DNA of 64,000 bases from Escherichia coli 042 (GCF_000027125.1 NC_017626.1); one strand, 5' to 3'. Numbered from the stretch's first letter, positions 1,567 through 34,817 are shown. The notes: generated by a model from the letters alone, not told the origin. Translations and numbers: made by a program.

Positions 1567-2805
1567 TTATTCCGCGTTTTCGTGAATATGTTTGCTGCTG
1601 GCGGGTAGTAAACCGTCGGCACGGAACATCGCTTTAATCCCACGAATCGCCTGACGAATACGGTCTCGGTTTTCAATCAGTGCAAAGCGAACATGCGTGT
1701 CGCCGTAGTCGCCAAAGCCGATCCCCGGAGAGACACAGACCTTCGCTTCGTTAAGCAGTTTCTTGGCAAATTCCAGTGAGCCCATGGCCGCATATGGTTC
1801 CGGGATTTTCGCCCAGACATACATCGAAGCCTTCGGCATTTCGACCATCCAGCCCGCTTCATGCAGCCCTTTAACCAGTACATCGCGGCGGCGTTTGTAC
1901 TGTTCGGCAATGTCGCACACGCACTGTTGATCGCCCTCCAGCGCCGCAATTGCCGCTACCTGCAACGGCGTAAAGGTGCCGTAATCGTGATAGCTTTTAA
2001 TACGTGCCAACGCGCTGACCAGCGTTTTGTTACCGACCATAAAGCCGATACGCCAGCCCGCCATGTTGTAGCTTTTCGACAGCGTAAAGAACTCTACCGC
2101 CACATCGCGTGCGCCCGGCACCTGCATGATTGACGGCGCTTTCCAGCCATCGTAGACGATATCGGCATAGGCCAGGTCATGGACCACCAGCACATCGTAG
2201 CGTTTCGCCAGCGCCACAACCTTCTCAAAGAATTCCAGTTCCACGCATTGCGCGGTTGGGTTCGACGGGAAGCCGAGGAGCATCATCTTCGGTTTCGGAT
2301 AACTTTCACGAATGGCGCGTTCCAGTTCGTTGAAGAAATCGACACCTTCCACCAGCGGCACTGAGCGTACCTGCGCCCCGGCAATCACCGCGCCGTAAAT
2401 ATGAATCGGGTAGCTTGGATTAGGCACCAGTACAGTGTCACCATGATCCAGCGTCGCCAGCATCAGATGCGCCAGTCCCTCTTTCGAACCAATGGTGACG
2501 ATAGCCTCTGATTCCGGGTCGATCTCAACGTCGTAGCGATCCTGATACCAGCGGGAAATGGCGCGACGTAACCGCGGAATGCCGCGTGACGTGGAGTAAC
2601 CATGCGTGTCCGGGCGCTGGGCCACCGTACATAATTTTTCGACGATGTGCGGCGGAGTCGCACCGTCCGGGTTACCCATACTGAAATCGATAATATCTTC
2701 GCCGCGCCGACGCGCAGCCATTTTCAGTTCAGCGGTAATATTAAAAACGTAGGGCGGGAGACGATCAATGCGCGTAAAGCGACGTTCAGGGCGAGTGTCA
2801 GCCAT
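1567..2805 (-). CDS. alaC: Glutamate-pyruvate aminotransferase (class I PLP aminotransferase)
   Basis: 412-aa ORF recognised as AlaC/YfdZ. It has the [13 protein letters not shown]-lysine motif. Confidence 0.93.
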
Positions 2806-3181
2806 AATTTCCTCAGATTAACGTTAGCGCCCGGACCGTCCGAGCGACGCTGCCACGATGGTGGCTGTTTTGAAAATAGCCTGATTAATTTCTGTCTGTC
2901 CAGCGTTTTAGAACATTTTTATCAATGGCTTTAAATGAGGAACTCTGCTTTAAAAACAGGAAATTTATCTATGCTAACAAGAAAATTACCACTCAAATTA
3001 TTAACATTATAATTTCAATAAATTTACCAATCAGAAGTGCATTATCAAGAGATGCATTGCTAATACACCATTTATCTTTCAATCCCCTTTTAAAATTGTG
3101 GTTTTTCCTCAAAAATGGCCTGCTGGTCATCAGCCTTCAGGTTACCTATCATAGAGGTTTAATCCTTATTCAGAGTCACCC

Positions 3182-4879
3182 GTGCACGAAATATTCAACA
3201 TGCTGCTAGCGGTCTTCGATCGGGCAGCGTTAATGCTTATCTGCCTGTTCTTTCTCATCCGTATCCGCCTGTTTCGCGAACTGTTGCACAAGTCGGCGCA
3301 CTCCCCAAAAGAGCTGCTCGCTGTTACCGCCATTTTCTCGCTGTTCGCCCTGTTCAGCACCTGGTCCGGCGTTCCCGTAGAAGGCTCGCTGGTGAACGTA
3401 CGTATTATCGCGGTGATGTCAGGCGGGATTCTGTTTGGCCCGTGGGTAGGCATTATTACCGGCGTGATCGCAGGTATTCACCGTTATTTAATTGATATCG
3501 GCGGCGTGACGGCGATCCCCTGCTTTATCACCAGCATTCTGGCGGGTTGTATATCGGGCTGGATCAACCTGAAAATCCCTAAAGCACAGCGCTGGCGCGT
3601 CGGTATTCTCGGCGGCATGTTATGTGAAACGTTGACCATGATTCTGGTGATTGTCTGGGCACCAACTACCGCATTGGGGATCGATATCGTCTCTAAAATC
3701 GGGATTCCAATGATCCTCGGTAGCGTCTGTATCGGCTTTATTGTGCTGCTGGTGCAAAGCGTTGAGGGCGAAAAAGAGGCCAGCGCCGCGCGGCAGGCCA
3801 AGCTGGCGCTGGATATCGCCAACAAAACGCTACCGCTGTTTCGCCATGTCAATAGCGAGTCATTACGCAAAGTTTGTGAAATTATTCGCGATGATATTCA
3901 CGCCGATGCGGTGGCGATTACTAATACCGATCATGTGCTGGCCTATGTCGGCGTGGGCGAACACAACTATCAGAATGGCGATGACTTCATTAGCCCGACT
4001 ACCCGACAGGCGATGAATTACGGAAAAATCATCATTAAAAACAACGATGAAGCCCACCGCACACCAGAGATTCATTCCATGCTGGTGATCCCATTGTGGG
4101 AGAAAGGCGTTGTGACCGGAACACTGAAAATTTACTACTGCCACGCGCATCAGATCACTTCCTCATTACAGGAAATGGCGGTCGGTCTGTCGCAAATCAT
4201 CTCCACGCAACTGGAGGTTTCGCGTGCCGAGCAGTTACGTGAAATGGCAAATAAGGCAGAGCTTCGCGCTCTGCAAAGCAAAATTAATCCCCATTTTCTG
4301 TTTAACGCTCTGAACGCTATTTCATCGTCAATCCGTCTGAATCCAGATACCGCTCGCCAGCTGATCTTTAATCTGTCGCGTTATCTGCGCTATAACATTG
4401 AATTAAAAGACGATGAGCAAATCGATATCAAAAAAGAGCTGTATCAAATTAAAGACTATATTGCCATTGAGCAGGCCCGCTTTGGCGACAAGCTGACGGT
4501 TATCTATGATATTGATGAAGAGGTGAATTGCTGCATTCCCAGCCTGCTGATCCAGCCGTTGGTGGAGAATGCCATTGTCCACGGTATCCAGCCTTGCAAA
4601 GGTAAAGGCGTTGTCACCATCAGCGTTGCAGAGTGCGGCAATCGGGTACGCATTGCGGTGCGAGATACCGGGCACGGCATCGATCCAAAGGTGATTGAGC
4701 GGGTCGAAGCGAATGAAATGCCGGGCAATAAAATTGGTCTGCTGAATGTCCATCATCGCGTGAAGTTATTGTATGGCGAGGGGCTGCATATCCGCCGCCT
4801 GGAACCAGGAACGGAAATTGCGTTTTACATTCCTAACCAACGCACCCCAGTCGCCTCACAGACTACGTTATTGCTTTGA
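3182..4879 (+). CDS. ypdA: LytS-family sensor histidine kinase (pyruvate-responsive YpdA)
   Basis: 565 aa from a GTG start. It has an N-terminal multi-TM 5TM-LytS region, a central GAF-like region, the [11 protein letters not shown]-box and a C-terminal HATPase. Matches K-12 YpdA. Confidence 0.93.
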
Positions 4880-4893
4880 GCCGGAGTGATATT

Positions 4894-5628
4894 GTGAAAG
4901 TCATCATTGTTGAAGACGAATTCCTGGCACAACAGGAACTGAGCTGGCTAATTAAAGAGCACAGCCAGATGGAGATTGTCGGCACCTTTGACGACGGTCT
5001 GGACGTGTTGAAGTTTTTGCAGCATAACCGCGTCGACGCCATTTTTCTGGATATCAATATTCCGTCGCTGGATGGTGTGTTGCTGGCGCAAAACATCAGC
5101 CAGTTCGCCCATAAACCATTTATTGTGTTTATCACCGCGTGGAAAGAACATGCGGTAGAAGCGTTTGAACTGGAGGCGTTTGACTACATTCTCAAACCGT
5201 ATCAGGAGTCACGCATTACCGGGATGCTGCAAAAACTGGAAGCGGCCTGGCAACAACAGCAGACCAGCAGCACGCCTGCCGCGACGGTAACGCGTGAGAA
5301 TGACACCATTAATCTGGTGAAAGATGAGCGAATAATCGTCACGCCAATTAACGATATCTATTACGCCGAAGCGCACGAGAAAATGACCTTTGTCTATACG
5401 CGGCGTGAATCCTACGTAATGCCGATGAACATTACCGAATTTTGCAGCAAACTGCCGCCGTCGCATTTTTTCCGCTGCCATCGCTCATTTTGTGTCAATC
5501 TGAACAAAATCCGCGAGATCGAACCGTGGTTTAATAACACCTACATTCTGCGGCTGAAAGATCTGGATTTTGAAGTGCCAGTCAGCCGCAGCAAAGTTAA
5601 AGAATTCCGCCAGTTAATGCATCTTTAA
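4894..5628 (+). CDS. ypdB: LytTR-family response regulator
   Basis: 244 aa from GTG 4894 (VKVIIVEDE...). It has a REC domain (FLDINIP) and a C-terminal LytTR domain. The ORF-track start at 4876 is rejected. Confidence 0.92.
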   Translation: MKVIIVEDEFLAQQELSWLIKEHSQMEIVGTFDDGLDVLKFLQHNRVDAIFLDINIPSLDGVLLAQNISQFAHKPFIVFITAWKEHAVEAFELEAFDYILKPYQESRITGMLQKLEAAWQQQQTSSTPAATVTRENDTINLVKDERIIVTPINDIYYAEAHEKMTFVYTRRESYVMPMNITEFCSKLPPSHFFRCHRSFCVNLNKIREIEPWFNNTYILRLKDLDFEVPVSRSKVKEFRQLMHL

Positions 5629-5640
5629 TCGGGAACTTTC

Positions 5641-6498
5641 ATGAAAGCACCAGGCTTGCCCGCCGATCAACAATTTTTCGCCGATCTGTTCAGCGGCCTG
5701 GTGCTTAACCCGCAACTACTGGGGCGCGTCTGGTTTGCCAGCCAGCCTGCCTCGTTACCGGTGGGCAGTTTATGTATTGATTTTCCCCGTCTGGATATCG
5801 TGCTGCGCGGCGAATACGGCAATCTGCTGGAAGCAAAGCAGCAACGTATGGTTGAAGGAGAAATGCTGTTTATTCCAGCGCGCGCGGCTAATTTACCGAT
5901 CAACAACAAACCGGTGATGCTGTTAAGCCTGGTGTTCGCACCGACCTGGCTTGGGTTATCGTTTTACGATAGCCGTACCACGTCGTTGTTGCATCCTGCT
6001 CGCCAGATCCAACTTCCCAGCCTGCAACGCGGCGAAGGTGAAGCAATGCTTACTGCCCTCACCCATCTTAGCCGTTCGCCGCTGGAGCAGAATATCATTC
6101 AGCCACTGGTGTTAAGTTTGCTGCATCTTTGCCGCAACGTGGTGAATATGCCGCCGGGCAATTCGCAGCCGCGCGGCGATTTTCTTTATCACAGCATTTG
6201 TAACTGGGTTCAGGATAATTATGCGCAGCCGCTCACCCGTGAGAGCGTGGCGCAGTTTTTTAATATCACGCCCAATCATCTGTCAAAACTGTTTGCGCAG
6301 CATGGAACAATGCGTTTTATCGAATATGTGCGTTGGGTGCGAATGGCGAAGGCGAGGATGATTTTGCAGAAATATCATCTGTCGATTCATGAAGTGGCGC
6401 AGCGTTGCGGCTTTCCGGACAGCGACTATTTTTGTCGCGTCTTCCGGCGTCAGTTTGGCCTGACGCCGGGAGAGTACAGCGCCCGTTTTCAGGGCTAA
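5641..6498 (+). CDS. ypdC: AraC/XylS-family transcriptional regulator
   Basis: 285 aa with a C-terminal double HTH (…FPDSDYFCRVFRRQFGLTPGEY). Matches YpdC. Confidence 0.92.
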   Translation: MKAPGLPADQQFFADLFSGLVLNPQLLGRVWFASQPASLPVGSLCIDFPRLDIVLRGEYGNLLEAKQQRMVEGEMLFIPARAANLPINNKPVMLLSLVFAPTWLGLSFYDSRTTSLLHPARQIQLPSLQRGEGEAMLTALTHLSRSPLEQNIIQPLVLSLLHLCRNVVNMPPGNSQPRGDFLYHSICNWVQDNYAQPLTRESVAQFFNITPNHLSKLFAQHGTMRFIEYVRWVRMAKARMILQKYHLSIHEVAQRCGFPDSDYFCRVFRRQFGLTPGEYSARFQG

Positions 6499-6500
6499 CG

Positions 6501-8996
6501 TCAGAAGGTTAATTCCGTTTCCAGCAGCGTCAGGATGCTTTGCGCATCTTGCGCGGCGAACAGCGACTGGCGGAAGTTTTTATTCACCAGTTTACGCGCC
6601 AGCTGCGAGAAGACTTTCACATGATTCATCCCTTCGTTAGCGCCCAGTGTCAGCATGATCACCAGTTCGACTTCGCCCATTTCTGACTGCCAGTCAACCG
6701 GTTTCACCAGCCGGGCAATGCTGATACTGGAATGACGGATCCACTGAGATTTGGTATGCGGGATCGCTACGCCAAAACCAACGCCAGTAGTAACAATCTC
6801 TTCCCGCTGCCAGACATCTTCTTCCAGCTCAAACGGATGTTCAGTACGCCCGTTAACACCAAGGTTGCCGCACAGGAACTGGATCGCCTGCTCTTTATTA
6901 CTAAAGTCCTGATCAACAAAGATATTCTCCAGCGCCAGCAGTGGGCGAACGTCTTCTTCCGGCGTAAAGGCGGTGAGTAACGCTTCAATTTCCTGCGCAC
7001 TGCGGCATTCACATGCCTGACGCGCCAGTTCCCGACACGCCTCGCTATCCAGTTGACGAAGCTGGCTTTTCACCGCCGGAATGCGCGGGCTACTCATGCT
7101 TAACTCGTCCAGGCCCAGCCCAAGCAGTAGAGGCAGATAACGACTTTCACCGCCTAGTTCACCGCAAATACCTACCCATTTGCCGCGCTGATGCGCAGTG
7201 GTAACAATCTGCTGCAACATGCGCAGGAACGATGGCGTAATCGGGTTATACAGCGGCGATACGCGCGGGTTATTACGATCGACCGCATACAGATACTGGG
7301 TCATATCGTTAGAACCGATACTGAAGAAATCGACCTCATCGCAGAAGTGGTCGATGATGTAGCACACCGACGGCACTTCCACCATGATACCCAGCGTAAT
7401 CGTCTCTGCATGACGCAGACCATCGCGTTTAAGCTCAACGATCGCTTTTTGGATCTCACCCTTCACCCATAAGATCTGATCGAGGCTGTGAACCATCGGG
7501 ATCATCAGCTGGGCGTTGCCGAAACTGGCGGCACGCAAAATAGCCCGCAGTTGAGTGCGGAACAGGCCAGCAAATTCCGGGTAAATTCGTACCGCACGAT
7601 AGCCGAGGAACGGGTTCTCTTCCTGGGGAATGTTGAGGTAAGGAATGCTTTTATCGCCGCCGATGTCCATTGTGCGGAAGATAATCGGCTTGTCGCCCGC
7701 GGCCAGTAGCACCTGCTGGTAGGCTTCAAATTGCTCCTGCTCGTCCGGCGCGCTGTCGCGATCCATATAGAGCATTTCAGTACGGAACAGCCCAACACCT
7801 TCCGCGCCGTTGGCAAACGCGCCAGGCGCTTCCAGAGCAGTGCCAATATTCGCCGCAATATCAATGCGCTTGTTATCACGGGAATAGGCCAGCTGCGCGG
7901 CGGCCTGCGCCTGTTGTTGCTGACGTTTATCCGCCAGCGTCTGCGCAACCTGATAATAACCGCTCACCGCGTCATCAGGATTAATCGCCAGCACGCCGCA
8001 CTGGGCGTCAAGCACCGCCGGTTGCCCGGCATAACGGGCAATCGCATCCAGCGGCAGGCCGCTAAGAACCGGGATCGCCGAGGCGCGGGCCAGAATCAGT
8101 GTATGCGAGGTGCGCCCGGTTTTCTCCAGAATCATGCCCGCAAGATTTTTTAAATCGAGGCTTAAAAACTGGCTTGGGGTTAAATCTTCAGCCACCAGAA
8201 TGGTCGGTTTTTCAAGCACCAGATTGTTGCGCGGCTTCAGTTCCGGCCAGGTGATATGCAGCAACTGTTCGCTGATATCGCGAATGTCGCTAACACGCTC
8301 GCGCAGATAATCGCTGGCAGAAGCAGATAGTTTGGCGCAAACCTGCTCCATATTGCTGATGATCGCCGCCCCCAGCCCCTGATGCTGTTCTGCCATCAGG
8401 CGACGGATATTGCCCGCAAATTCATCATCCTGGATCAGCGACAAATGGGCGCTGAGGATAGTTTTGCTTTCTCCGTCACGCTCACGCAATTGCTGGTTCA
8501 GTTGCTCGGCAAGCGTTGCCAGGCTGTGCTCCAGCAGGGTGGAATCTTGCGCACTGGCGGGGATTGCCCGATAACTATCGAGGCTGTCGCTCTGTAACAG
8601 GGTCAGCGTACCCACGCCGACGCCGCTTGCCAGCACATTGCCGTACAGTAAATCAGGATTCAGACGGCTTAATGAACGCGGCAGCGGATGCGCCGTCAGT
8701 TTTGCCTGTGTTGGCTGGATGCTGTCGCTGTCGATAAAGCGCACCTGGATGTACTCTTCCAGCACGCGCCGCGCCTGCTCTTCATCGCTGCCGCTAATGT
8801 TCAGGCTGCAACTGTCATTAAATAAAGTGCCAGTGCCAATCAGCGCCAGCGAGCTTTTGGCATCTGCCTTTGCGTTCTGGCGATGGTTAATAAAAGTGAT
8901 TTCGCTTTGCCACTGGTTGCACTGTTCTTTAAGTTCCCACGCCGGACGAGCATGCAGACCGTTTGGCAAAGGACAGAGAAATTGAATCGTTAACAT
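6501..8996 (-). CDS. fryA: Multiphosphoryl-transfer PTS protein (HPr-EI-EIIA fusion)
   Basis: 831 aa. It has an N-terminal HPr-like motif GLHARPA, the EI phosphohistidine motif GRTSHTLILARA and a C-terminal EIIA(Fru/Ntr-type) AIPHTK. Matches FryA/YpdD. Confidence 0.93.
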   Translation of the reverse strand: MLTIQFLCPLPNGLHARPAWELKEQCNQWQSEITFINHRQNAKADAKSSLALIGTGTLFNDSCSLNISGSDEEQARRVLEEYIQVRFIDSDSIQPTQAKLTAHPLPRSLSRLNPDLLYGNVLASGVGVGTLTLLQSDSLDSYRAIPASAQDSTLLEHSLATLAEQLNQQLRERDGESKTILSAHLSLIQDDEFAGNIRRLMAEQHQGLGAAIISNMEQVCAKLSASASDYLRERVSDIRDISEQLLHITWPELKPRNNLVLEKPTILVAEDLTPSQFLSLDLKNLAGMILEKTGRTSHTLILARASAIPVLSGLPLDAIARYAGQPAVLDAQCGVLAINPDDAVSGYYQVAQTLADKRQQQQAQAAAQLAYSRDNKRIDIAANIGTALEAPGAFANGAEGVGLFRTEMLYMDRDSAPDEQEQFEAYQQVLLAAGDKPIIFRTMDIGGDKSIPYLNIPQEENPFLGYRAVRIYPEFAGLFRTQLRAILRAASFGNAQLMIPMVHSLDQILWVKGEIQKAIVELKRDGLRHAETITLGIMVEVPSVCYIIDHFCDEVDFFSIGSNDMTQYLYAVDRNNPRVSPLYNPITPSFLRMLQQIVTTAHQRGKWVGICGELGGESRYLPLLLGLGLDELSMSSPRIPAVKSQLRQLDSEACRELARQACECRSAQEIEALLTAFTPEEDVRPLLALENIFVDQDFSNKEQAIQFLCGNLGVNGRTEHPFELEEDVWQREEIVTTGVGFGVAIPHTKSQWIRHSSISIARLVKPVDWQSEMGEVELVIMLTLGANEGMNHVKVFSQLARKLVNKNFRQSLFAAQDAQSILTLLETELTF

Positions 8997-9020
8997 AACC
9001 GCTCCGGGTTAATCAGGAGA

Positions 9021-10058
9021 TCATCTGAAATCCGTCAGTTGAACAACCGTCTCACGCGTAAGACGTTGAATAAGGGCAGATAAAAGCTGCTGCATCTGCA
9101 AAATGTCACGGCAATCGGCAATCGATGCGGCGCAATGTCCGTGGCGGGTCGCAGGCCCCATCACCACTGTGGGTACGCCAGTGCCGGTTAAGTGCACCGC
9201 CCCACCGTCCGTGCCACCGTTGCTGAACATATCTGCCTGTAACGGCACGCTAATTTCTGCCGCCACGGTTTCAATCCACGCGGTAAGTTTTGGCGGCGCA
9301 ATCAGCGATTTATCGCTTAACACCAGCATCGGGCCGTTACCAATCTGACGATGGTTAGCCGCGCCATAATCAAAGTTTTTCGCCCAGCAGGCGGTATCCA
9401 GCACAATCGCAACGTCCGGTGAAACCGCACGGGTAGCGGTTTGCCCGCCGCGTAAGCCGACCTCTTCGCTGGAGCTGGCCACCAACCACACTTCCGCAGG
9501 CAGTTCGGCATCGTGCAGCTCACGTAGTAAGGTAACTAACAGGTAGCAACCGAGGCGATCATCAAAGGCTTTCCCCATCACTCGCTGGTGAGGGAGAACC
9601 TGAAAAGTGGTATCAAAGGTGACGCGATCGCCTGGACGAATTCCCGCCTGCATCACTTCGTCATACGAGCGAGCGCCAATGTCCACGCGCATGGCGCTGA
9701 CGTCATTCCCCTGCCGGTCGCCGTCAAGCAGGCCAGGTATTTTGCACTCTTCACGGGTGGTGATCCGCACCGGCTGAAGCTGTCGGGCAGCCATGCGCAC
9801 GTTGCCAACTGGCAGCACATCAATCGCCCCTTCGCGGGAGATGCTGCGCACCATAAATCCCACTTCGTCCATATGCGCACAGATCATCACCTTCGGACCT
9901 GTCGATTCATTGAGGCGGATCAGCACCGATCCCAGCCCATCAAATCGCACTTCTTTTTGCAGGCGATCCGCTTCTTCCAGCAGGATCTGCCGTACTTCCT
10001 GTTCCGAGGAGGCGATCGCATCTGCCTCGCTCAACGCTTTTAGTAACGATAAATCCAT
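9021..10058 (-). CDS. ypdE: M42-family aminopeptidase
   Basis: 345 aa recognised as YpdE, a paralogue of FrvX and SgcX. Its start overlaps the ypdF stop by 1 nt. Confidence 0.92.
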
Positions 10059-11143
10059 TATGCCTCTCCCGTGAGCAACACTGTTTTCGGCATGGCGTAG
10101 AGCACTTCTGCGCCTTGCGGGGTGACCAGCACAACATCTTCGATGCGCACGCCCCCTTGCCCTGGCAAATAAATCCCCGGCTCCACGGTCAGTAACATGC
10201 CTGGCTGTAGCGTCGTGGTATCCCGCGGTGAAAAACGCGGCTCTTCATGGACTTCAATGCCGATAGCATGACCGGTGTTATGACCGAAATAGTCGCCATA
10301 ACCTGCTTCTGTAATGACCCGGCGCGCGGCATCGTCAACCTGCTGGCAGCGCACGCCGGGGCGAATCGCGGAGATTGCTGCGAGCTGTGCCTGCAGGACA
10401 ATCTGATAGACGTTAAACAGCGGGTGAGATTCGGCGCTCACCCCTTCGCCATTCACCAGCAAGGTGCGCGTCATATCAGAGCAGTACCCCTGATAGAGCG
10501 CACCAAAATCAAGAGTGACAAACTCGCCCGCTGCAACAATCTTGTCGCTGGCTTTACCGTGCGGCAGCGCGCCACGCCAGCCGCTGGCGACAATGGTGTC
10601 AAAAGAAGCTTTTTCTGCGCCCTGCTGGCGCATAAACCACTCCAGTTCAGCGGCTATCTCGCGCTCGCTCATCCCCGCCTGAATAAAGCGGCGAATATGC
10701 TCAGCACCGCGATCGGCAATCCCACAGGCGAGGCGGATTTTCTCCACCTCCTCTGGCGTTTTGATTTGCCGCAGCACATCCGGCGTGGCGCTAACCAGTT
10801 TCGCATTGAGTTCAGACTGCCAGCGGTGCGCGGTTTCCCAACTCACCTGCTGGCCCTCAAAACCGAGCGTTTGCAACTGCTCATCGGCAATGATTTGATT
10901 GACGATAGTGGTAAGCGTGTTCGTCGCGTCAAGCAAATGCAGCTGGTAGCCTTGCGTGCGGGCTTCTACATCCGCGTAATAGCGCGAATCCACCAGAATG
11001 TGCGCACTTTCACGGCTAATCACCACATAGCCTGATCCGGTGGAGATCCCCAGATGCGGCTGTTTGTTCTGCCGTGAGGAGAGAAGCACCGCATCCAGTT
11101 GTTGCGCCTTAAGCCAGTCGCGCAGCGAAGCGAGTAATGTCAT
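10058..11143 (-). CDS. ypdF: M24B Xaa-Pro/Met aminopeptidase
   Basis: 361 aa with a pita-bread fold signature ([13 protein letters not shown]). Matches YpdF. Confidence 0.92.
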
Positions 11144-11157
11144 CTGGATTTTCCTTC

Positions 11158-12405
11158 TTACAGGCTATCGATTAACAATTTGCCTTTACGGAACATCATC
11201 AGACGCAGGAACACCACCATCAGCGCAGTAATGACTGCCCCCAACGCGATCCCCGCCATGTAGACGCCGAGGTTAGTGACCAGCGGCCATGCCCAGATAG
11301 CGGACTCCGGGAACCATTGCACTGCGCCCAGCCAGACTGCAGCGGTTGAGCCGACAATCGCGCCGACCATATAGGACGGAATGGCGGTGATGGGGCTTTC
11401 CAGTGCAAACGGAATCGCACCTTCACTGATCCCCATAAACGCCAGGAACATGGCGGTTTTACCCTGCGGATAAAGCTGAGCACTGAACAGACGTTTGCCG
11501 GTTAAACGGCGGTCGATAATGGTCGCCAGACCCAGACCAATCGGCGGAATAACGATAGCGATAGAACGTGCGGTGACCGGTAATACGTGGTCCGTGGTAA
11601 AGCTGAAGGCAACGAAACCAGCTGCTTTGTTGATCGGGCCACCAAGGTCAATTGCTGTCGCCGCGGCGATCCCCATCGCGTACATCAGCGCGCCCTTCTC
11701 ACCTGCGGCAGTCAGCACGGTACGGATACCGCCGTTGATCCAGCCGCCAAAGGGGGTGATGACGTAGTACATCGCCAGCATGACAAAAATGGCGGAAAGA
11801 ATCGGTAGCAAAAATGTGGTTTTGAACGCTAACAGGAAATCCGGTAACTGGATTTTCTGGTTCATCCATTTCACAAGGTAACCAGCAACGATAGAAATAA
11901 TCAGGGCACCAATGAAGGTGGACGGCACCGGCGAAGAGGTCGCCCATTGCATAGTGCTGGGATCGAAGTTCAGCAGTTGCGTCGGCTGGGTAGACATCAA
12001 GCCGCCAATAAAACCAGCCGGGAACGCCAGTTTGCCGCCGATAGAGTTCGCCACAAAAGCGGCAAACATCGGAATGGCGAAACCAAACAACACGCCGCCG
12101 AAGGACTGCGACAGCCAGGCAAATTTCAGTAAGGAAAGGTCGAAACCGGAGAATTTCCCGCTATTAAGAGCATCCATGATGCCGATATCAGCAGGAATTT
12201 TAAGCCAGCTATAAGCAATCAGCTGGCTGAAAGCGAGGATCACACCGCCCATAATTAAGGTCGGCACCATGCGTGAAATCCCTGACATCACATGCTGCGG
12301 GAGTTCACCCCAGAAGCTGCTTTTAGAGGCCTGCGGATTCTTAACTGCCGCTGCCGCACCGGATGCGCCAGGCACAACGGTTGCACTGCGTTTTTTAATG
12401 GCCAT
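11158..12405 (-). CDS. fryC: PTS EIIC component, fructose-like
   Basis: 415-aa polytopic membrane protein. Matches FryC/YpdG. Confidence 0.92.
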
Positions 12406-12426
12406 AACAATTATCCCTGTCGAATA

Positions 12427-12753
12427 TTACTGTTGTTCAGAGGCAATCATCTCTTCGATTTCTTTGATGATGCCCGCAGCGTTTTTAATTGCGTCCTGCA
12501 AAGTGATTTCATAAACGTCGCGTGATTCGAAACGTTCGTTATCTTCCGGGGTAACCGCCACGGAGTGGATGATGATGGTCGCTTCGGCGATATCCTGCGC
12601 GGTCAGGCGATTCTGGATGCCGTCCGCGCCCTGAGTTTCAATTTTCACTTCATAGCCTGCTTCCACCGCCGCTTCTTCCAGCGCCTGGGCAGCCATAAAG
12701 GTGTGAGCCAGACCCATCGGGCAGGCACATAAAGCAATCAGTTTCTTACTCAT
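12427..12753 (-). CDS. fryB: PTS EIIB component, fructose-like
   Basis: 108 aa from ATG 12753 with a GAGGA SD. It has the active-site Cys motif CACPMGLAHT. The 125-aa ORF-track extension is rejected. Confidence 0.9.
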   Translation of the reverse strand: MSKKLIALCACPMGLAHTFMAAQALEEAAVEAGYEVKIETQGADGIQNRLTAQDIAEATIIIHSVAVTPEDNERFESRDVYEITLQDAIKNAAGIIKEIEEMIASEQQ

Positions 12754-12934
12754 CGTTAATTCCTCGTTCAGTGATAGTTGACGAGTGAAATTATGAACGT
12801 GCAAAACAAATCGCCGTTACCAGACAAATAATGCATTTACTGGAGAATTAATCCCGCTGCACGGAAGTGTGACGCAGGTCGGCCTTGTGAGGGGACACAA
12901 AGGAAAATTGAATTAACTGTATGATTTAAAAGAT

Positions 12935-12958
12935 TATCGGGAGAGTTACCTCCCGATA
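12935..12958 (-). terminator. Hairpin terminator after glk
   Basis: tatcgggag-(6 nt)-ctcccgata is a 9-bp stem lying 14 nt after the glk stop. The U-tract on the minus strand is moderate. Confidence 0.55.
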
Positions 12959-12971
12959 TAACAGGAAGGAT

Positions 12972-13937
12972 TTACAGAATGTGACCTAAGGTCTGGCGTA
13001 AATGTGCACCGGAACCGAGAAGACCCGGATTGTCATGGACGATGAGATACACCGGAATATCATGGACATATTCTTTAAAGCGCCCTTTATCTTCAAATGC
13101 GGCACGGAAACCGGAGGCTTTGAAGAACTCAAGGAAGCGCGGCACGATACCACCCGCAATAAACACGCCGCCAAATGTCCCGAGATTGAGCGCCAGATTG
13201 CCGCCAAAACGGCCCATAATGACGCAAAACAGCGACAACGCGCGGCGGCAATCGGTGCAGCTGTCAGCCAGCGCACGTTCGGTAATATCTTTTGGCTTGA
13301 GATTTTCTGGCAGGCGGTTGTCGGCTTTCACAATCGCGCGATACAAATTCACCAGCCCAGGACCAGAAAGCACGCGCTCTGCCGAAACATGACCAATTTC
13401 TGCACGCAGTATTTCGAGGATAATGCCCTCTTCTTCACTATTCGGCGCAAAATCAACGTGACCGCCTTCGCCTGGCAAGCTTACCCAACGCTTATCTACA
13501 TGGACCAGATGCGCAACCCCAAGCCCCGTTCCGGCACCGTAAACCGCAATAGGCTTACCTTCGACCGGTTCTGCGCCACCAAACTGAATCAGATGCTCTT
13601 TTTTCAGCATCGGGATCGCCATCGATACAGCGGTAAAATCGTTAATAATTTCCAGATGGCTAAAACCGAGATTCTTTTTCATTTCGGCAATTGAGAACGC
13701 CCAGGTATGGTTGGTCATTGCCACCCAGTCACCGGTAATTGGGCAAGCGATGGCAATACAGCCGTCTTTCACCTCGACCTTATGTTCTTCAAGATAAACG
13801 CGAATGACCGCTTCGAGGCTGGGGTAATCAAGCCCTGAATAGGTCTTAGCCTGCGAGATTTCACCACTGGCAATATCACACAGAGCAAGACGTGCGTTGG
13901 TGCCGCCCACATCACCGACTAATGCATACTTTGTCAT
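12972..13937 (-). CDS. glk: Glucokinase
   Basis: 321 aa, [19 protein letters not shown]... is recognised as E. coli Glk. Confidence 0.96.
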
Positions 13938-14140
13938 TCTTCAACTGCTCCGCTAAAGTCAAAATAATTCTTTCTCACACTGTAAATACCTGGGGGCATA
14001 ACAACAACGCCGGAAAGGCAGGCTCCCTGTAAATATCGATCTGGGTCACACAATTACTTTATCGTTTCAGCACCAATTGCAGCGATGCCTTTTTGCAAGC
14101 TGGGCAAACTAAGTATCTGACCCCGCATAAGGAATAGAAT

Positions 14141-15397
14141 ATGCTCCATCCGCGAGCCAGAACCATGTTGTTATTATCGCTCCCCGCCGTGGCAATTGGG
14201 ATTGCGTCCAGTCTTATTCTGATTGTGGTGATGAAAATCGCCTCGGTATTACAGAATTTGCTCTGGCAACGACTGCCGGGAACTCTGGGGATAGCCCAGG
14301 ATTCACCTTTCTGGATCATCGCCATATTAACGCTAACAGGTATTGCGGTGGGGTTGGTTATCCGTTTCAGCCAGGGGCATGCCGGACCAGACCCCGCCTG
14401 TGAACCGCTGATCGGCGCACCAGTTCCGCCCTCTGCGCTACCAGGACTTATCGTAGCATTAATTCTCGGTCTTGCTGGCGGCGTCAGCCTGGGGCCGGAA
14501 CATCCGATCATGACCGTCAATATCGCCCTTGCGGTTGCCATTGGCGCTCGTCTGTTACCGCGCGTCAACCGAATGGAGTGGACTATTTTAGCCTCTGCCG
14601 GCACCATCGGCGCGCTGTTTGGCACACCTGTTGCGGCGGCGTTGATATTTTCGCAAACCTTAAATGGCAGTAGTGAAGTTCCGCTATGGGATCGTCTTTT
14701 TGCGCCATTAATGGCGGCAGCAGCTGGTGCACTTACTACCGGATTATTTTTCCATCCCCATTTTTCACTGCCCATTGCGCATTACGGACAGATGGAAATG
14801 ACCGATATTCTCAGCGGTGCAATTGTCGCGGCGATTGCCATCGCAGCAGGGATGGTCGCCGTATGGTGCTTACCACGGTTGCACGCGATGATGCATCAAA
14901 TGAAAAATCCGGTGCTCGTGCTGGGTATTGGCGGATTTATTCTCGGTATTCTGGGGGTTATGGGTGGACCAGTTTCGCTGTTTAAAGGGCTGGATGAGAT
15001 GCAGCAGATGGTGGCAAATCAGGCTTTCAGCACCAGCGATTACTTTTTGCTGGCGGTGATTAAACTTGCCGCCCTGGTCGTTGCTGCCGCCAGTGGCTTT
15101 CGCGGTGGACGAATCTTCCCGGCAGTGTTTGTCGGCGTGGCATTAGGGTTGATGCTGCATGAGCACGTTCCCCCCGTTCCAGCGGCAATAACCGTTTCCT
15201 GCGCTATTCTCGGCATCGTGCTGGTGGTAACACGCGATGGCTGGTTAAGTCTTTTTATGGCGGCAGTCGTTGTACCCAATACCACATTGCTACCGCTGCT
15301 CTGTATCGTCATGCTTCCGGCATGGCTGTTATTAGCAGGTAAGCCGATGATGATGGTCAATCGTCCGAAGCAACAGCCACCCCACGATAACGTTTAG
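14141..15397 (+). CDS. yfeO: ClC-like ion transport membrane protein
   Basis: 418-aa polytopic membrane protein. Matches YfeO. Confidence 0.9.
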
Positions 15398-32787: not shown

Positions 32788-33045
32788 ATGTTCCAGCAAG
32801 AAGTTACCATTACCGCTCCGAACGGTCTGCACACCCGCCCTGCTGCCCAGTTTGTAAAAGAAGCTAAGGGCTTCACTTCTGAAATTACTGTGACTTCCAA
32901 CGGCAAAAGCGCCAGCGCGAAAAGCCTGTTTAAACTGCAGACTCTGGGCCTGACTCAAGGTACCGTTGTGACTATCTCCGCAGAAGGCGAAGACGAGCAG
33001 AAAGCGGTTGAACATCTGGTTAAACTGATGGCGGAACTCGAGTAA
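32788..33045 (+). CDS. ptsH: PTS phosphocarrier protein HPr
   Basis: 85 aa, [27 protein letters not shown]... Confidence 0.98.
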
Positions 33046-33089
33046 TTTCCCGGGTTCTTTTAAAAATCAGTCACAAGTAAGGTAGGGTT

Positions 33090-34817
33090 ATGATTTCAGG
33101 CATTTTAGCATCCCCGGGTATCGCTTTCGGTAAAGCTCTGCTTCTGAAAGAAGACGAAATTGTCATTGACCGGAAAAAAATTTCTGCCGACCAGGTTGAT
33201 CAGGAAGTTGAACGTTTTCTGAGCGGTCGTGCCAAGGCATCAGCCCAGCTGGAAACGATCAAAACGAAAGCTGGTGAAACGTTCGGTGAAGAAAAAGAAG
33301 CCATCTTTGAAGGGCATATTATGCTGCTCGAAGATGAGGAGCTGGAGCAGGAAATCATAGCCCTGATTAAAGATAAGCACATGACAGCTGACGCAGCTGC
33401 TCATGAAGTTATCGAAGGTCAGGCTTCTGCCCTGGAAGAGCTGGATGATGAATACCTGAAAGAACGTGCGGCTGACGTACGTGATATCGGTAAGCGCCTG
33501 CTGCGCAACATCCTGGGCCTGAAGATTATCGACCTGAGCGCCATTCAGGATGAAGTCATTCTGGTTGCCGCTGACCTGACGCCGTCCGAAACCGCACAGC
33601 TGAACCTGAAGAAGGTGCTGGGTTTCATCACCGACGCGGGTGGCCGTACTTCCCACACCTCTATCATGGCGCGTTCTCTGGAACTGCCTGCTATCGTGGG
33701 TACCGGTAGCGTCACCTCTCAGGTGAAAAATGACGACTATCTGATTCTGGATGCCGTAAATAATCAGGTTTACGTCAATCCAACCAACGAAGTTATTGAT
33801 AAAATGCGCGCTGTTCAGGAGCAAGTGGCTTCTGAAAAAGCAGAGCTTGCTAAACTGAAAGATCTGCCAGCTATTACGCTGGACGGTCACCAGGTAGAAG
33901 TGTGCGCTAACATTGGTACGGTTCGTGACGTTGAAGGTGCAGAGCGTAACGGCGCTGAAGGCGTTGGTCTGTATCGTACTGAGTTCCTGTTCATGGACCG
34001 CGACGCGCTGCCCACTGAAGAAGAACAGTTTGCTGCTTACAAAGCAGTGGCTGAAGCGTGTGGCTCGCAGGCGGTTATCGTTCGTACCATGGACATCGGC
34101 GGCGACAAAGAGCTGCCATACATGAACTTCCCGAAAGAAGAAAACCCGTTCCTCGGCTGGCGCGCTATCCGTATCGCGATGGATCGTAAAGAGATCCTGC
34201 GCGATCAGCTCCGCGCTATCCTGCGTGCCTCGGCTTTCGGTAAATTGCGCATTATGTTCCCGATGATCATCTCTGTTGAAGAAGTGCGTGCACTGCGCAA
34301 AGAGATCGAAATCTACAAACAGGAACTGCGCGACGAAGGTAAAGCGTTTGACGAGTCAATTGAAATCGGCGTAATGGTGGAAACACCGGCTGCCGCAACA
34401 ATTGCACGTCATTTAGCCAAAGAAGTTGATTTCTTTAGTATCGGCACCAATGATTTAACGCAGTACACTCTGGCAGTTGACCGTGGTAATGATATGATTT
34501 CACACCTTTACCAGCCAATGTCACCGTCCGTGCTGAACTTGATCAAGCAAGTTATTGATGCTTCTCATGCTGAAGGCAAATGGACTGGCATGTGTGGTGA
34601 GCTTGCTGGCGATGAACGTGCTACACTTCTGTTGCTGGGGATGGGTCTGGACGAATTCTCTATGAGCGCCATTTCTATCCCGCGCATTAAGAAGATTATC
34701 CGTAACACGAACTTCGAAGATGCGAAGGTGTTAGCAGAGCAGGCTCTTGCTCAACCGACAACGGACGAGTTAATGACGCTGGTTAACAAGTTCATTGAAG
34801 AAAAAACAATCTGCTAA
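33090..34817 (+). CDS. ptsI: PTS enzyme I
   Basis: 575 aa with active-site motif [14 protein letters not shown]. Confidence 0.98.

Follow-up and report, generated by a model that had tools for sequence, protein, structure and literature searches.

The 64,000-nt stretch of the Escherichia coli 042 chromosome analysed here (GCF_000027125.1, NC_017626.1; referred to below as "the window") carries the fry operon at positions 6501-12753 of the minus strand, where five genes follow one another in the order fryB-fryC-ypdF-ypdE-fryA according to both the listing of open reading frames (ORFs) and the RefSeq annotation of an E. coli chromosome that is 100% identical. These genes encode the components of a phosphotransferase system (PTS) and two aminopeptidases. 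A reading made from the DNA alone (the sequence-only reading) had placed five minus-strand genes with these domains at this site, and the ORF listing, RefSeq and Pfam bear it out. It had also given spacers of 0-24 nt with one overlap of 1 nt; the overlap stands, but the lower bound does not, as the spacing from fryB to fryA is 21, 14, -1 and 24 nt and the real gaps are thus 14-24 nt. The block is present in 5415 of the 5426 complete E. coli genomes and is therefore a genuine part of the species core, its arrangement not being due to chance. Already on record are the operon with its domain content, the structures of both peptidases and the parallel with frvX and sgcX, and their description is not new. 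The literature searched holds no functional assignment for the fry substrate, and fryA was stated in 2017 to have no function assigned and an unknown substrate (PMC5364489).

Genes, proteins and promoter region of the fry operon

Judged by domains and catalytic residues, the operon appears to encode a complete private phosphorelay, in agreement with the sequence-only reading. FryA joins in one polypeptide the HPr motif GLHARPA (residues 13-19, with His15), the EI motif GRTSHTLILARA (residues 294-305, with His298) and the EIIA motif AIPHTK (residues 744-749, with His747), all of which that reading had named, and the three histidines are unchanged in 36/36 orthologues. Its HPr domain and the N, mobile and C domains of the PEP-utilisers type all score above the Pfam cut-offs, FryA matches TIGR01417 (PTS_I_fam) with 503 bits against a cut-off of 341.7, and its EI part is 39% identical to the PtsI encoded in the same window. 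FryB retains Cys11 in each of 40 orthologues. FryC reaches 53 bits against PF02378 (cut-off 30.7) and passes the NCBIfam model TIGR01427 (PTS_IIC_fructo) marginally, with 157.7 bits against 157.55; it scores far under all the substrate-specific equivalogs (FruA, FrwC, MngA and FrvB). The EIIC domain, the EIIB cysteine and the EIIA histidine that define membership in the fructose family of the PTS are all present.

Both peptidases are equally well preserved in their active sites. YpdF matches PF01321 and PF00557 and has the Creatinase_N domain, the M24 domain of pita-bread fold and the five metal ligands of an M24B enzyme (D212, D223, H292, E321 and E335, all invariant); its structure is solved (PDB 5CNX, "Aminopeptidase YpdF"). 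YpdE scores 286 bits against Pfam PF05343 (Peptidase_M42) and 680 bits against the NCBIfam equivalog NF007421. Its M42 domain, two-metal ligand set and catalytic glutamate are in place, with H62, D64, D167, E198, E199, D221 and H308 unchanged in 43 enterobacterial and 13 Firmicute sequences, and the structure of the Shigella orthologue is solved (PDB 1YLO). The specificities of the two enzymes are reportedly complementary. PMC3511314 names YpdE as a characterised aminopeptidase, citing Zheng et al. 2005, and mentions unpublished data according to which it is dodecameric, and PMC7939560 quotes the specificity of YpdF as MP-, MA-, MS-, AP- and NP-. A ypdE deletion mutant of strain UTI89 was outcompeted in the mouse bladder, with a competitive index of 0.30 (PMC8767336). 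One could suppose that the M42 protein is instead a glycoside hydrolase of the "CelM/endoglucanase" type which acts on the imported sugar, and the old labels "cellulase M", "endoglucanase" and "FrvX" are indeed still attached to its homologues. We consider this extremely improbable, as M42 proteins labelled as cellulases were shown to be aminopeptidases, with YpdE cited as a characterised aminopeptidase (PMC3511314), and all the M42 metal and catalytic residues are invariant.

All five genes evolve under purifying selection, with ratios of nonsynonymous to synonymous substitution (dN/dS) of 0.01-0.16 by the Nei-Gojobori method when the window is compared with orthologues of Escherichia ruysiae, Citrobacter, Salmonella, Pseudocitrobacter and Superficieibacter (Table 1). 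All phosphorylation sites and metal or catalytic residues are invariant across 36-43 enterobacterial orthologues. Taken together, the low ratios and the invariant active residues indicate that this "cryptic" operon is uninduced in the laboratory and not decaying.

The DNA 5' of fryB was compared in an alignment of 260 nt from 13 genera, in which an unalignable stretch is followed by a conserved block of about 95 nt. The operator-like block CCAGTAAATGCATTATTTGTCTGGTAAC occurs only once in the window, with zero occurrences expected by chance, and it stays conserved though the DNA farther upstream varies with the chromosomal context. We predict from its arrangement that it is the site of the AraC-type activator YpdC, on which the promoter would depend. 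YpdC matches PF12833 and PF00165, which correspond to the C-terminal double helix-turn-helix of the AraC/XylS family. The promoter has no -35 consensus, and for this reason a consensus promoter scan misses it, as is expected for an activator-dependent promoter; by analogy, its layout would be of the araBAD type. The TCACA element, placed about 45 nt upstream of the operator, may be a CRP half-site centred near -92.5. A full CRP site is not claimed, as one half matches and the left half agrees at 2/5 positions.

Inside the operon, the consensus scan gave no excess of promoter-like or terminator-like sites, their number being at or under the shuffle expectation. The median spacing over 40 loci is 20.5, 16, -1 and 25 nt. 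This tight spacing, the single conserved promoter block and the lack of excess internal sites together suggest that the five genes form one transcript. The hairpin past the stop codon of glk marks the upstream boundary of the fry module and separates the operon from glk.

Table 1. Features of the fry region in the window, with dN/dS ranges for the genes
Feature	Position	Strand	Description	dN/dS
Terminator-like hairpin	12935..12958	-	just past glk stop; 10-bp stem, 5 GC pairs, then T-rich tail	
TCACA element	12868..12872	-	invariant in 13 genera	
Operator-like block CCAGTAAATGCATTATTTGTCTGGTAAC	12816..12843	-	two CCAGTAA/CTGGTAA repeats 20 nt apart; overlaps -35 position	
Predicted fryB -10 hexamer CATAAT	12790..12795	-	5/6 positions invariant in 13 genera; Hafnia CATACT	
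fryB Shine-Dalgarno sequence	12761-12765	-	within conserved upstream block	
fryB	12427..12753	-	PTS EIIB, 108 aa; Pfam PTS_IIB; catalytic Cys11	0.013-0.034
fryC	11158..12405	-	fructose-family PTS EIIC, 415 aa; Pfam PF02378 (PTS_EIIC)	0.011-0.048
ypdF	10058..11143	-	M24B aminopeptidase, 361 aa; Creatinase_N + Peptidase_M24; stop overlaps ypdE start by 1 nt	0.086-0.160
ypdE	9021..10058	-	M42 aminopeptidase, 345 aa; Pfam Peptidase_M42	0.040-0.097
fryA	6501..8996	-	fused HPr-EI-EIIA, 831 aa; five Pfam domains	0.024-0.115
FryA HPr domain	~8745-8981	-	PTS-HPr, aa 6-84	
FryA EI domain	~7047-8642	-	PEP-utilisers_N / PEP-utilizers / PEP-utilizers_C, aa 119-650	
FryA EIIA domain	~6519-6938	-	PTS_EIIA_2, aa 687-826	
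ypdC	5641..6498	+	AraC-family regulator; convergent with fryA, 2 nt between stop codons	0.066-0.153
glk			adjoining housekeeping gene	0.027-0.033

Upstream of ypdC, positions 1567-5628 of the window are occupied by alaC (alanine transaminase) and ypdA-ypdB (two-component system), and the general PTS genes ptsH and ptsI lie at 32788-34817, about 24 kb from fry. An Rfam scan of 5500-14200 found nothing. A slight response of ypdF and fryA to Cpx activation has been recorded (PMC2731931).

Several observations concern polymorphism within the species. The stretch 6001-13500 has a match of at least 99% in just 11 of 5425 E. coli records (e.g. strain A10, from a wood-wren), nearly all the others matching at 95-99%, and the window is derived from an uncommon E. 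coli lineage. A rare in-frame deletion allele of ypdE (locus L047, protein P0024) lacks 81 bp, i.e. the 27 residues of codons 72-98 (9765-9845 in the window). The apparent absence of these codons from 59% of E. coli, obtained with an 81-nt megablast query, was rejected as an artefact: with a 281-nt query, 5413 of the 5426 genomes span the site. These 281 nt are 90-95% identical in 2063 genomes, while the whole 7.5-kb region falls below 95% in just 4, and this part of ypdE is therefore a local hot spot of divergence.

Conservation of the peptidase-PTS association in two phyla

A scan with YpdE, limited to one genome per species, yielded 79 loci. Four of them (L021, L044, L046 and L065) were left out of all counts; they come from "complete" E. 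coli and Shigella records (CP1783xx, CP1825xx) in which all genes, including glk, show 40-80% protein identity and fragmented matches, and they have the look of assemblies rich in errors. The contigs attributed to Chryseobacterium sp. 18061 and Leadbetterella sp. DM7 (L027, L073) contain either a fry locus of enterobacterial type or 249 nt without a difference from E. coli ypdE, which is probably due to contamination or mislabelling of the public assemblies.

The gene order fryB-fryC-ypdF-ypdE-fryA is kept in every enterobacterial locus of good quality and sufficient length reached through YpdE. The carriers include Escherichia, Citrobacter, Salmonella, Kluyvera, Klebsiella sp., Pseudocitrobacter and Pseudescherichia, as well as Scandinavium, Superficieibacter, Pluralibacter, Buttiauxella, Enterobacter spp., Hafnia and Sodalis. 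In nearly all these loci ypdC adjoins the operon, also where glk and ypdAB are missing, and in Sodalis it lies upstream on the same strand. The five genes and ypdC therefore form one module, which occurs in about 20 genera of enterobacteria and is set in at least five chromosomal contexts: glk/ypdAB, dcuC-rna/rnk, ompF/asnS (Klebsiella species), those of Hafnia and Sodalis, and a further one at locus L170. As the flanks vary while the six genes stay together, ypdAB, alaC and glk are outside the module, and ypdC, which moves with the operon, is its probable dedicated regulator. The candidate membership of ypdAB in the system was rejected, these genes being missing from most contexts outside Escherichia. 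Homologues of FryC with 65-76% identity are accompanied by the same five genes and the AraC gene in 3/3 cases; this reverse survey from EIIC genes reached close relatives only, and a metagenome scan with FryC gave E. coli contigs only.

Additional genes accompany some versions of the module. In 13 loci of the rna/rnk context (e.g. L024, 14504-15418) an alpha/beta-hydrolase gene stands directly 5' of ypdC on the same strand; its product matches Abhydrolase_1 and Hydrolase_4, with a weak match to the proline-iminopeptidase family, and it could either belong to the module of these genera as a third hydrolase or be native to this chromosomal site. Sodalis-type loci (L042, 24-5797; L172, 1-5231) contain, 5' of ypdC-fryB, another M24 peptidase, two M20-family amidohydrolases, an Ldh_2 dehydrogenase and a glyoxalase-fold protein.

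Outside Enterobacterales, the nearest relatives of YpdE (41-45% identity) belong to Clostridioides difficile, Romboutsia, Terrisporobacter, Pseudolactococcus, Latilactobacillus, Clostridium thermobutyricum and Erysipelotrichaceae. Their genes lie in an operon composed of a PRD/EIIA-type regulator, the M42 peptidase, EIIA, EIIB and EIIC of the lactose/cellobiose family, an M24B peptidase and a PatB-family C-S lyase dependent on pyridoxal phosphate (PLP). A second protein search added contexts from Clostridium sp. cel8, Ligilactobacillus, Holdemanella, Enterococcus camelliae, Clostridium intestinale, Granulicatella and a metagenomic genome. The YpdE-type M42 gene is inside a lactose/cellobiose-family PTS operon in 23/23 Firmicute contexts (16/16 genome loci and the 7/7 further ones), and the M24B gene is present in 21 of the 23, Longicatena alone being without it among the 16 genome loci. 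The PTS parts match PF02255 (EIIA), PF02302 (EIIB) and PF02378 (EIIC), the last with 261 bits against 236 for TIGR00410. In Pseudolactococcus raffinolactis (L056, 11833-14399) EIIC and M24B are each broken into two ORFs, which could be pseudogenisation or a sequencing error.

The M42 tree, built by neighbour-joining from 53 sequences and 352 columns, unites enterobacterial YpdE with the Firmicute PTS-linked M42 proteins in 100/100 bootstraps, counted as outgroup-rooted monophyly, and leaves FrvX and SgcX outside. In line with this, the YpdE equivalog NF007421 (cut-off 412) is passed by the proteins of C. difficile (564.8) and Clostridium sp. cel8 (502.1) and failed by FrvX (280.6) and SgcX (187). 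The clade, the equivalog scores and the difference in PTS families lead us to the view that one peptidase lineage is tied to the PTS in two phyla. The claim of the sequence-only reading that PTS and peptidases are associated recurrently is thereby upheld; both the conserved enterobacterial order and the Firmicute contexts show the link to be non-random. Within the literature searched, the cross-phylum module of M42, PTS, M24B and PatB may be undescribed as such.

More distant M42 genes show other surroundings. Distant Clostridium loci combine lactose-family EIIB and EIIC and an RDD protein with two tandem M42 genes; in Clostridium nitritogenes (L067, 4169-13135) and its relatives the set comprises an aspartase-like lyase, RDD, lactose-family EIIB, EIIC, a GrdB-like fragment, the two tandem M42 genes and a sigma-54 activator. 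Archaeal and other distant loci have tandem M42 genes and no PTS match among the PTS families searched. The RDD-family membrane protein recurs with M42-PTS genes, standing after PatB in seven loci (L062, L063, L083-L086, L089) and ahead of EIIB in three Clostridium loci (L066, L067, L075).

The Firmicute operons encode EIIA, EIIB and EIIC without a private EI or HPr. The EI-HPr-EIIA fusion of FryA is real, but it is an enterobacterial trait of the module and not a requirement of the pathway. This comparison bears on the idea that fry is a regulatory phosphorelay and not a transporter, in which FryA and FryB would sense phosphoenolpyruvate (PEP) or pyruvate in the manner of the nitrogen PTS (PTS-Ntr) or DhaM and control the activity or expression of the peptidases. 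The private fusion fits this idea, as does the fact that in Escherichia the pyruvate-sensing ypdA/ypdB and alaC adjoin the operon. Nevertheless, a full-length EIIC is always present and no other gene is as constrained as its own (dN/dS 0.011-0.048), ypdAB and alaC are not carried along with the module, and the Firmicute operons do without EI and HPr, so that a purely regulatory role is highly improbable.

Proposed function of the module

Partner genes point to the side of the substrate on which the chemistry may take place. A PatB-family lyase gene lies directly 3' of fryA in Sodalis-type loci, and TIGR04350 (PatB/MalY, cut-off 340) is reached by the proteins of C. difficile (367.4) and Sodalis (363.1); three others remain just under the cut-off (339.6 for L088, 330.6 for L059 and 312.2 for L083), PatB being the sole family match there at E<=1e-40. 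No glycosidase, sugar kinase, isomerase, deacetylase or deglycase is encoded between the first and the last gene of any Pfam-annotated operon, fry or Firmicute, and no glycoside hydrolase of the phospho-beta-glycosidase type (families GH1/GH4) occurs in the eight Pfam-annotated Firmicute contexts. In both operon types, two or three of the encoded enzymes have amino acids or peptides as their targets. Given that sugar-processing enzymes are lacking and the amino-acid side has two or three, the simplest reading is that the imported sugar is a common one and the special chemistry concerns the amino-acyl side. We also considered alaC as the E. coli counterpart of PatB and rejected it: it is an AlaC equivalog with about 22% identity to PatB and does not travel with the module.

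We propose that the fry operon is an inducible catabolic module for molecules that combine a PTS-phosphorylatable sugar or sugar-like head with an amino-acyl or short-peptide portion whose N-terminus is free, a proposal on which our own judgement is evenly balanced. In the suggested sequence of events, PEP would phosphorylate FryA, where the phosphate would pass from His298 of EI to His15 of HPr and to His747 of EIIA, and FryA would hand it on to Cys11 of FryB, so that FryC could import and phosphorylate the substrate. In the cytoplasm, the broad M42 enzyme YpdE and YpdF would strip off amino acids, the latter handling the Xaa-Pro and Met-Xaa bonds that would stall YpdE. What is left would be a common sugar phosphate requiring no dedicated enzyme, the dedicated chemistry being confined to the amino-acyl side of the imported molecule. 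In the Firmicute and Sodalis versions, the PatB-type PLP-dependent beta-lyase/racemase might beta-eliminate or racemise the last residue. Transcription would start from one promoter upstream of fryB and depend on YpdC. A functional link between import and trimming, like the kind of molecule imported, is what we infer here. The pairing of peptidase and PTS itself looks functional, as the same peptidase joins another PTS family in many gut Firmicutes.

Several neighbours of the Firmicute operons touch on the nature of the substrate. In Peptostreptococcaceae (C. difficile L049, 1008-7759, and six further loci) an aga/tagatose-like set without a transporter of its own is located just 5' of the operon; it consists of genes for a NagA-like amidohydrolase, GntR/UTRA, PfkB, a GFO/MocA oxidoreductase, SIS and a class II aldolase. 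This set weakly suggests an amino-sugar phosphate as the product and weakly favours an amino-sugar-peptide conjugate as the substrate, an alternative that the sequence-only reading had also named. The Holdemanella operon is immediately followed by a RidA (Ribonuc_L-PSP) gene (L085, 14042-14419), and that of Clostridium sp. cel8 has genes for YeeE-type sulfur transport and TusA after it (L083, 14111-15552); these are single cases compatible with a beta-elimination or sulfur-releasing step.

The sequence-only reading had put forward, as one testable idea, an Amadori compound: a peptide or amino acid that carries a fructosyl group or is otherwise glycated, and that would be phosphorylated during import and trimmed afterwards. 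Its attractions are that FryC is a fructose-family EIIC, that a SIS-domain gene lies upstream of the Peptostreptococcaceae operon and that Salmonella gfr offers a precedent. Yet neither the fry module nor the annotated Firmicute operons include a SIS-type deglycase or a fructosamine kinase, and the C. difficile SIS gene sits with the NagA-like, PfkB and class II aldolase genes of an aga/tagatose-type set. The EIIC of the Firmicute counterpart belongs to the lactose/cellobiose family, and the recurring partner is the PatB C-S lyase/racemase. Moreover, it is established in enzymology that an N-alpha-fructosyl group blocks aminopeptidases. The glycated-peptide idea thus finds no specific support in these data, and we regard it as very unlikely.

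A number of points weigh against the conjugate-degrading module that we propose. YpdC, its predicted activator, yielded no peaks in chromatin immunoprecipitation with exonuclease digestion (ChIP-exo) in standard laboratory media (PMC8464067). PatB is absent from the E. coli-type operon and from the other enterobacterial loci beyond the Sodalis type. Because the species-level loci are phylogenetically related, the independent association events between PTS and M42 are few, about five by our count (fry, frv, sgc, the Firmicute operon and the Clostridium tandem-M42 loci). The Firmicute M24B proteins fall under the cut-off of 393 of the YpdF equivalog NF007310 (247.3 in C. difficile, 242.2 in Clostridium sp. 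cel8, L083); their best solved relative is 3Q6D and not YpdF, and they are not the reciprocal best match of YpdF among solved structures. By the equivalog test they are not orthologues of YpdF, although they are M24B enzymes of the same short type. The M24B half of the peptidase pair may consequently have been recruited independently in the two operon types, although such a double recruitment would argue for a functional need over shared descent. Finally, YpdE and YpdF cleave plain unmodified peptides in vitro, which means that a special conjugate is not required for their activity, and clustering can mirror co-regulation without a common substrate.

The last point leads to the alternative that nothing but co-regulation holds the operon together: the PTS would take up an ordinary sugar or polyol and the aminopeptidases would digest ordinary peptides, both being met in the same niche (e.g. 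glycoprotein debris) or needed in starvation. It would agree with the action of the two enzymes on unmodified peptides, as described in literature cited in PMC3511314 and PMC7939560, and with a 48-bp in-frame deletion in fryA that arose and was advantageous during prolonged culture in peptide-rich lysogeny broth (LB; PMC5364489). The TCACA element, as a possible means of catabolite control, and the non-orthologous M24B partners of the two operon types are also in its favour. We find this alternative rather unlikely for three reasons: the M42 clade retains a PTS partner despite the swap of the PTS family, the operons lack an enzyme for any sugar product yet have up to three for the amino-acid side, and ypdF and ypdE, which overlap one another, are inserted between fryC and fryA in a manner unusual for hitch-hikers.

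If the conjugate-degrading module is taken one step further, the YpdE-type M42 peptidase with a PTS, usually accompanied by M24B and a PatB-type lyase, would constitute a horizontally mobile pathway that Enterobacteriaceae and gut Firmicutes have in common and that handles glyco-amino acids or short glycopeptides taken up through the PTS, the bond between sugar and amino acid being broken by peptidases and PLP-dependent beta-elimination and not by a glycosidase. As a whole this extension is unlikely. Its candidate substrates may include O- or S-glycosyl Ser/Thr/Cys peptides from the Pro/Thr/Ser-rich host mucins, N-aminoacyl amino sugars and sugar-cysteine adducts. Were it true, it would mean a new class of PTS substrates, a new catabolic logic and a function for an orphan operon of E. 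coli known since genome sequencing.

The question is of interest since few PTS systems of E. coli still lack a substrate, and fry, frv and sgc belong to them. A coupling of transport with peptidase action would mean that the PTS handles conjugates of sugars with peptides or amino acids, a class relevant to nutrition in the gut and the urinary tract, where a ypdE mutant is attenuated (mouse bladder, PMC8767336). The comparison narrows the search: M42, M24B and PatB stay constant while the EIIC family changes, and the pathway can do without an enzyme for the sugar. The cross-phylum module turns a vague curiosity into a testable hypothesis, for which tractable handles are YpdC together with the predicted operator of the fryB promoter, the PRD regulator of the Firmicute operon, and MalY of L. 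sakei, which has already been purified.

Comparison with known systems

One comparison is with the TET-type M42 peptidases (PhTET1-3, PepA, YsdC), which have the fold family and the metal ligands in common with YpdE. The housekeeping TET genes of our survey (L069-L080) are tandem M42 paralogues located outside the YpdE clade, with no PTS match among the PTS families searched.

As to conjugate uptake, Salmonella gfrABCDEF encodes a mannose-family PTS that imports glucoselysine and fructoselysine. The gfr system and E. coli frl have in common the uptake of a sugar-amino-acid conjugate, which is then split in the cytoplasm into a sugar phosphate and the amino acid. They use SIS-type deglycases or a fructosamine kinase and, to our knowledge, no aminopeptidases.

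A further comparison is with the two other orphan operons of E. coli with M42 paralogues, to which the sequence-only reading had pointed and which the K-12 annotation confirms as frvA-frvB-frvX-frvR and sgcX-sgcB-sgcC-sgcQ-sgcA-sgcE-sgcR, with frvX and sgcX overlapping their PTS neighbours. Like fry, they have the M42 gene embedded in a PTS operon without an assigned substrate. FrvX and SgcX are only 35% and 31.5% identical to YpdE, and unlike fry the two operons have neither an M24B partner nor a private EI/HPr; frv has a fused EIIBC and a PRD-type regulator, and sgc a galactitol-type EIIC and an epimerase. According to a report of July 2026, the sgc operon is functionally unassigned and is induced on nitrogen-containing carbon sources, and mutants lacking it grow without a phenotype on 190 Biolog carbon sources (PMC13343008).

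The E. coli malX-malY pair, consisting of a PTS EIICB and the beta-C-S lyase MalY with an unknown natural substrate, is cited in PMC5845896. It resembles the Firmicute and Sodalis operons in combining a PTS permease with a PLP-dependent lyase of the PatB/MalY family, and differs from fry in having no peptidases, a glucose-family EIICB and a separate locus.

One described member of the Firmicute operon type is the 8-kb cluster of Latilactobacillus sakei LT-13, which contains PRD proteins, an aminopeptidase, PTS Lac IIA/IIB/IIC, RDD, another aminopeptidase and malY (Kato and Oikawa 2018, PMC5845896). Its Ls-MalY was shown to depend on PLP and to act both as a cystathionine beta-lyase and as a racemase of a broad range of amino acids, and the authors treated the cluster as strain-specific, without a link to fry or a remark on the breadth of its conservation (PMC5845896). 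Compared with fry, it has a lactose/cellobiose-family PTS, no private EI/HPr and a PRD instead of an AraC regulator, with PatB/MalY and RDD in addition. Its architecture is that of the Firmicute operon found here, and its M42-type aminopeptidase belongs to the clade that contains YpdE.

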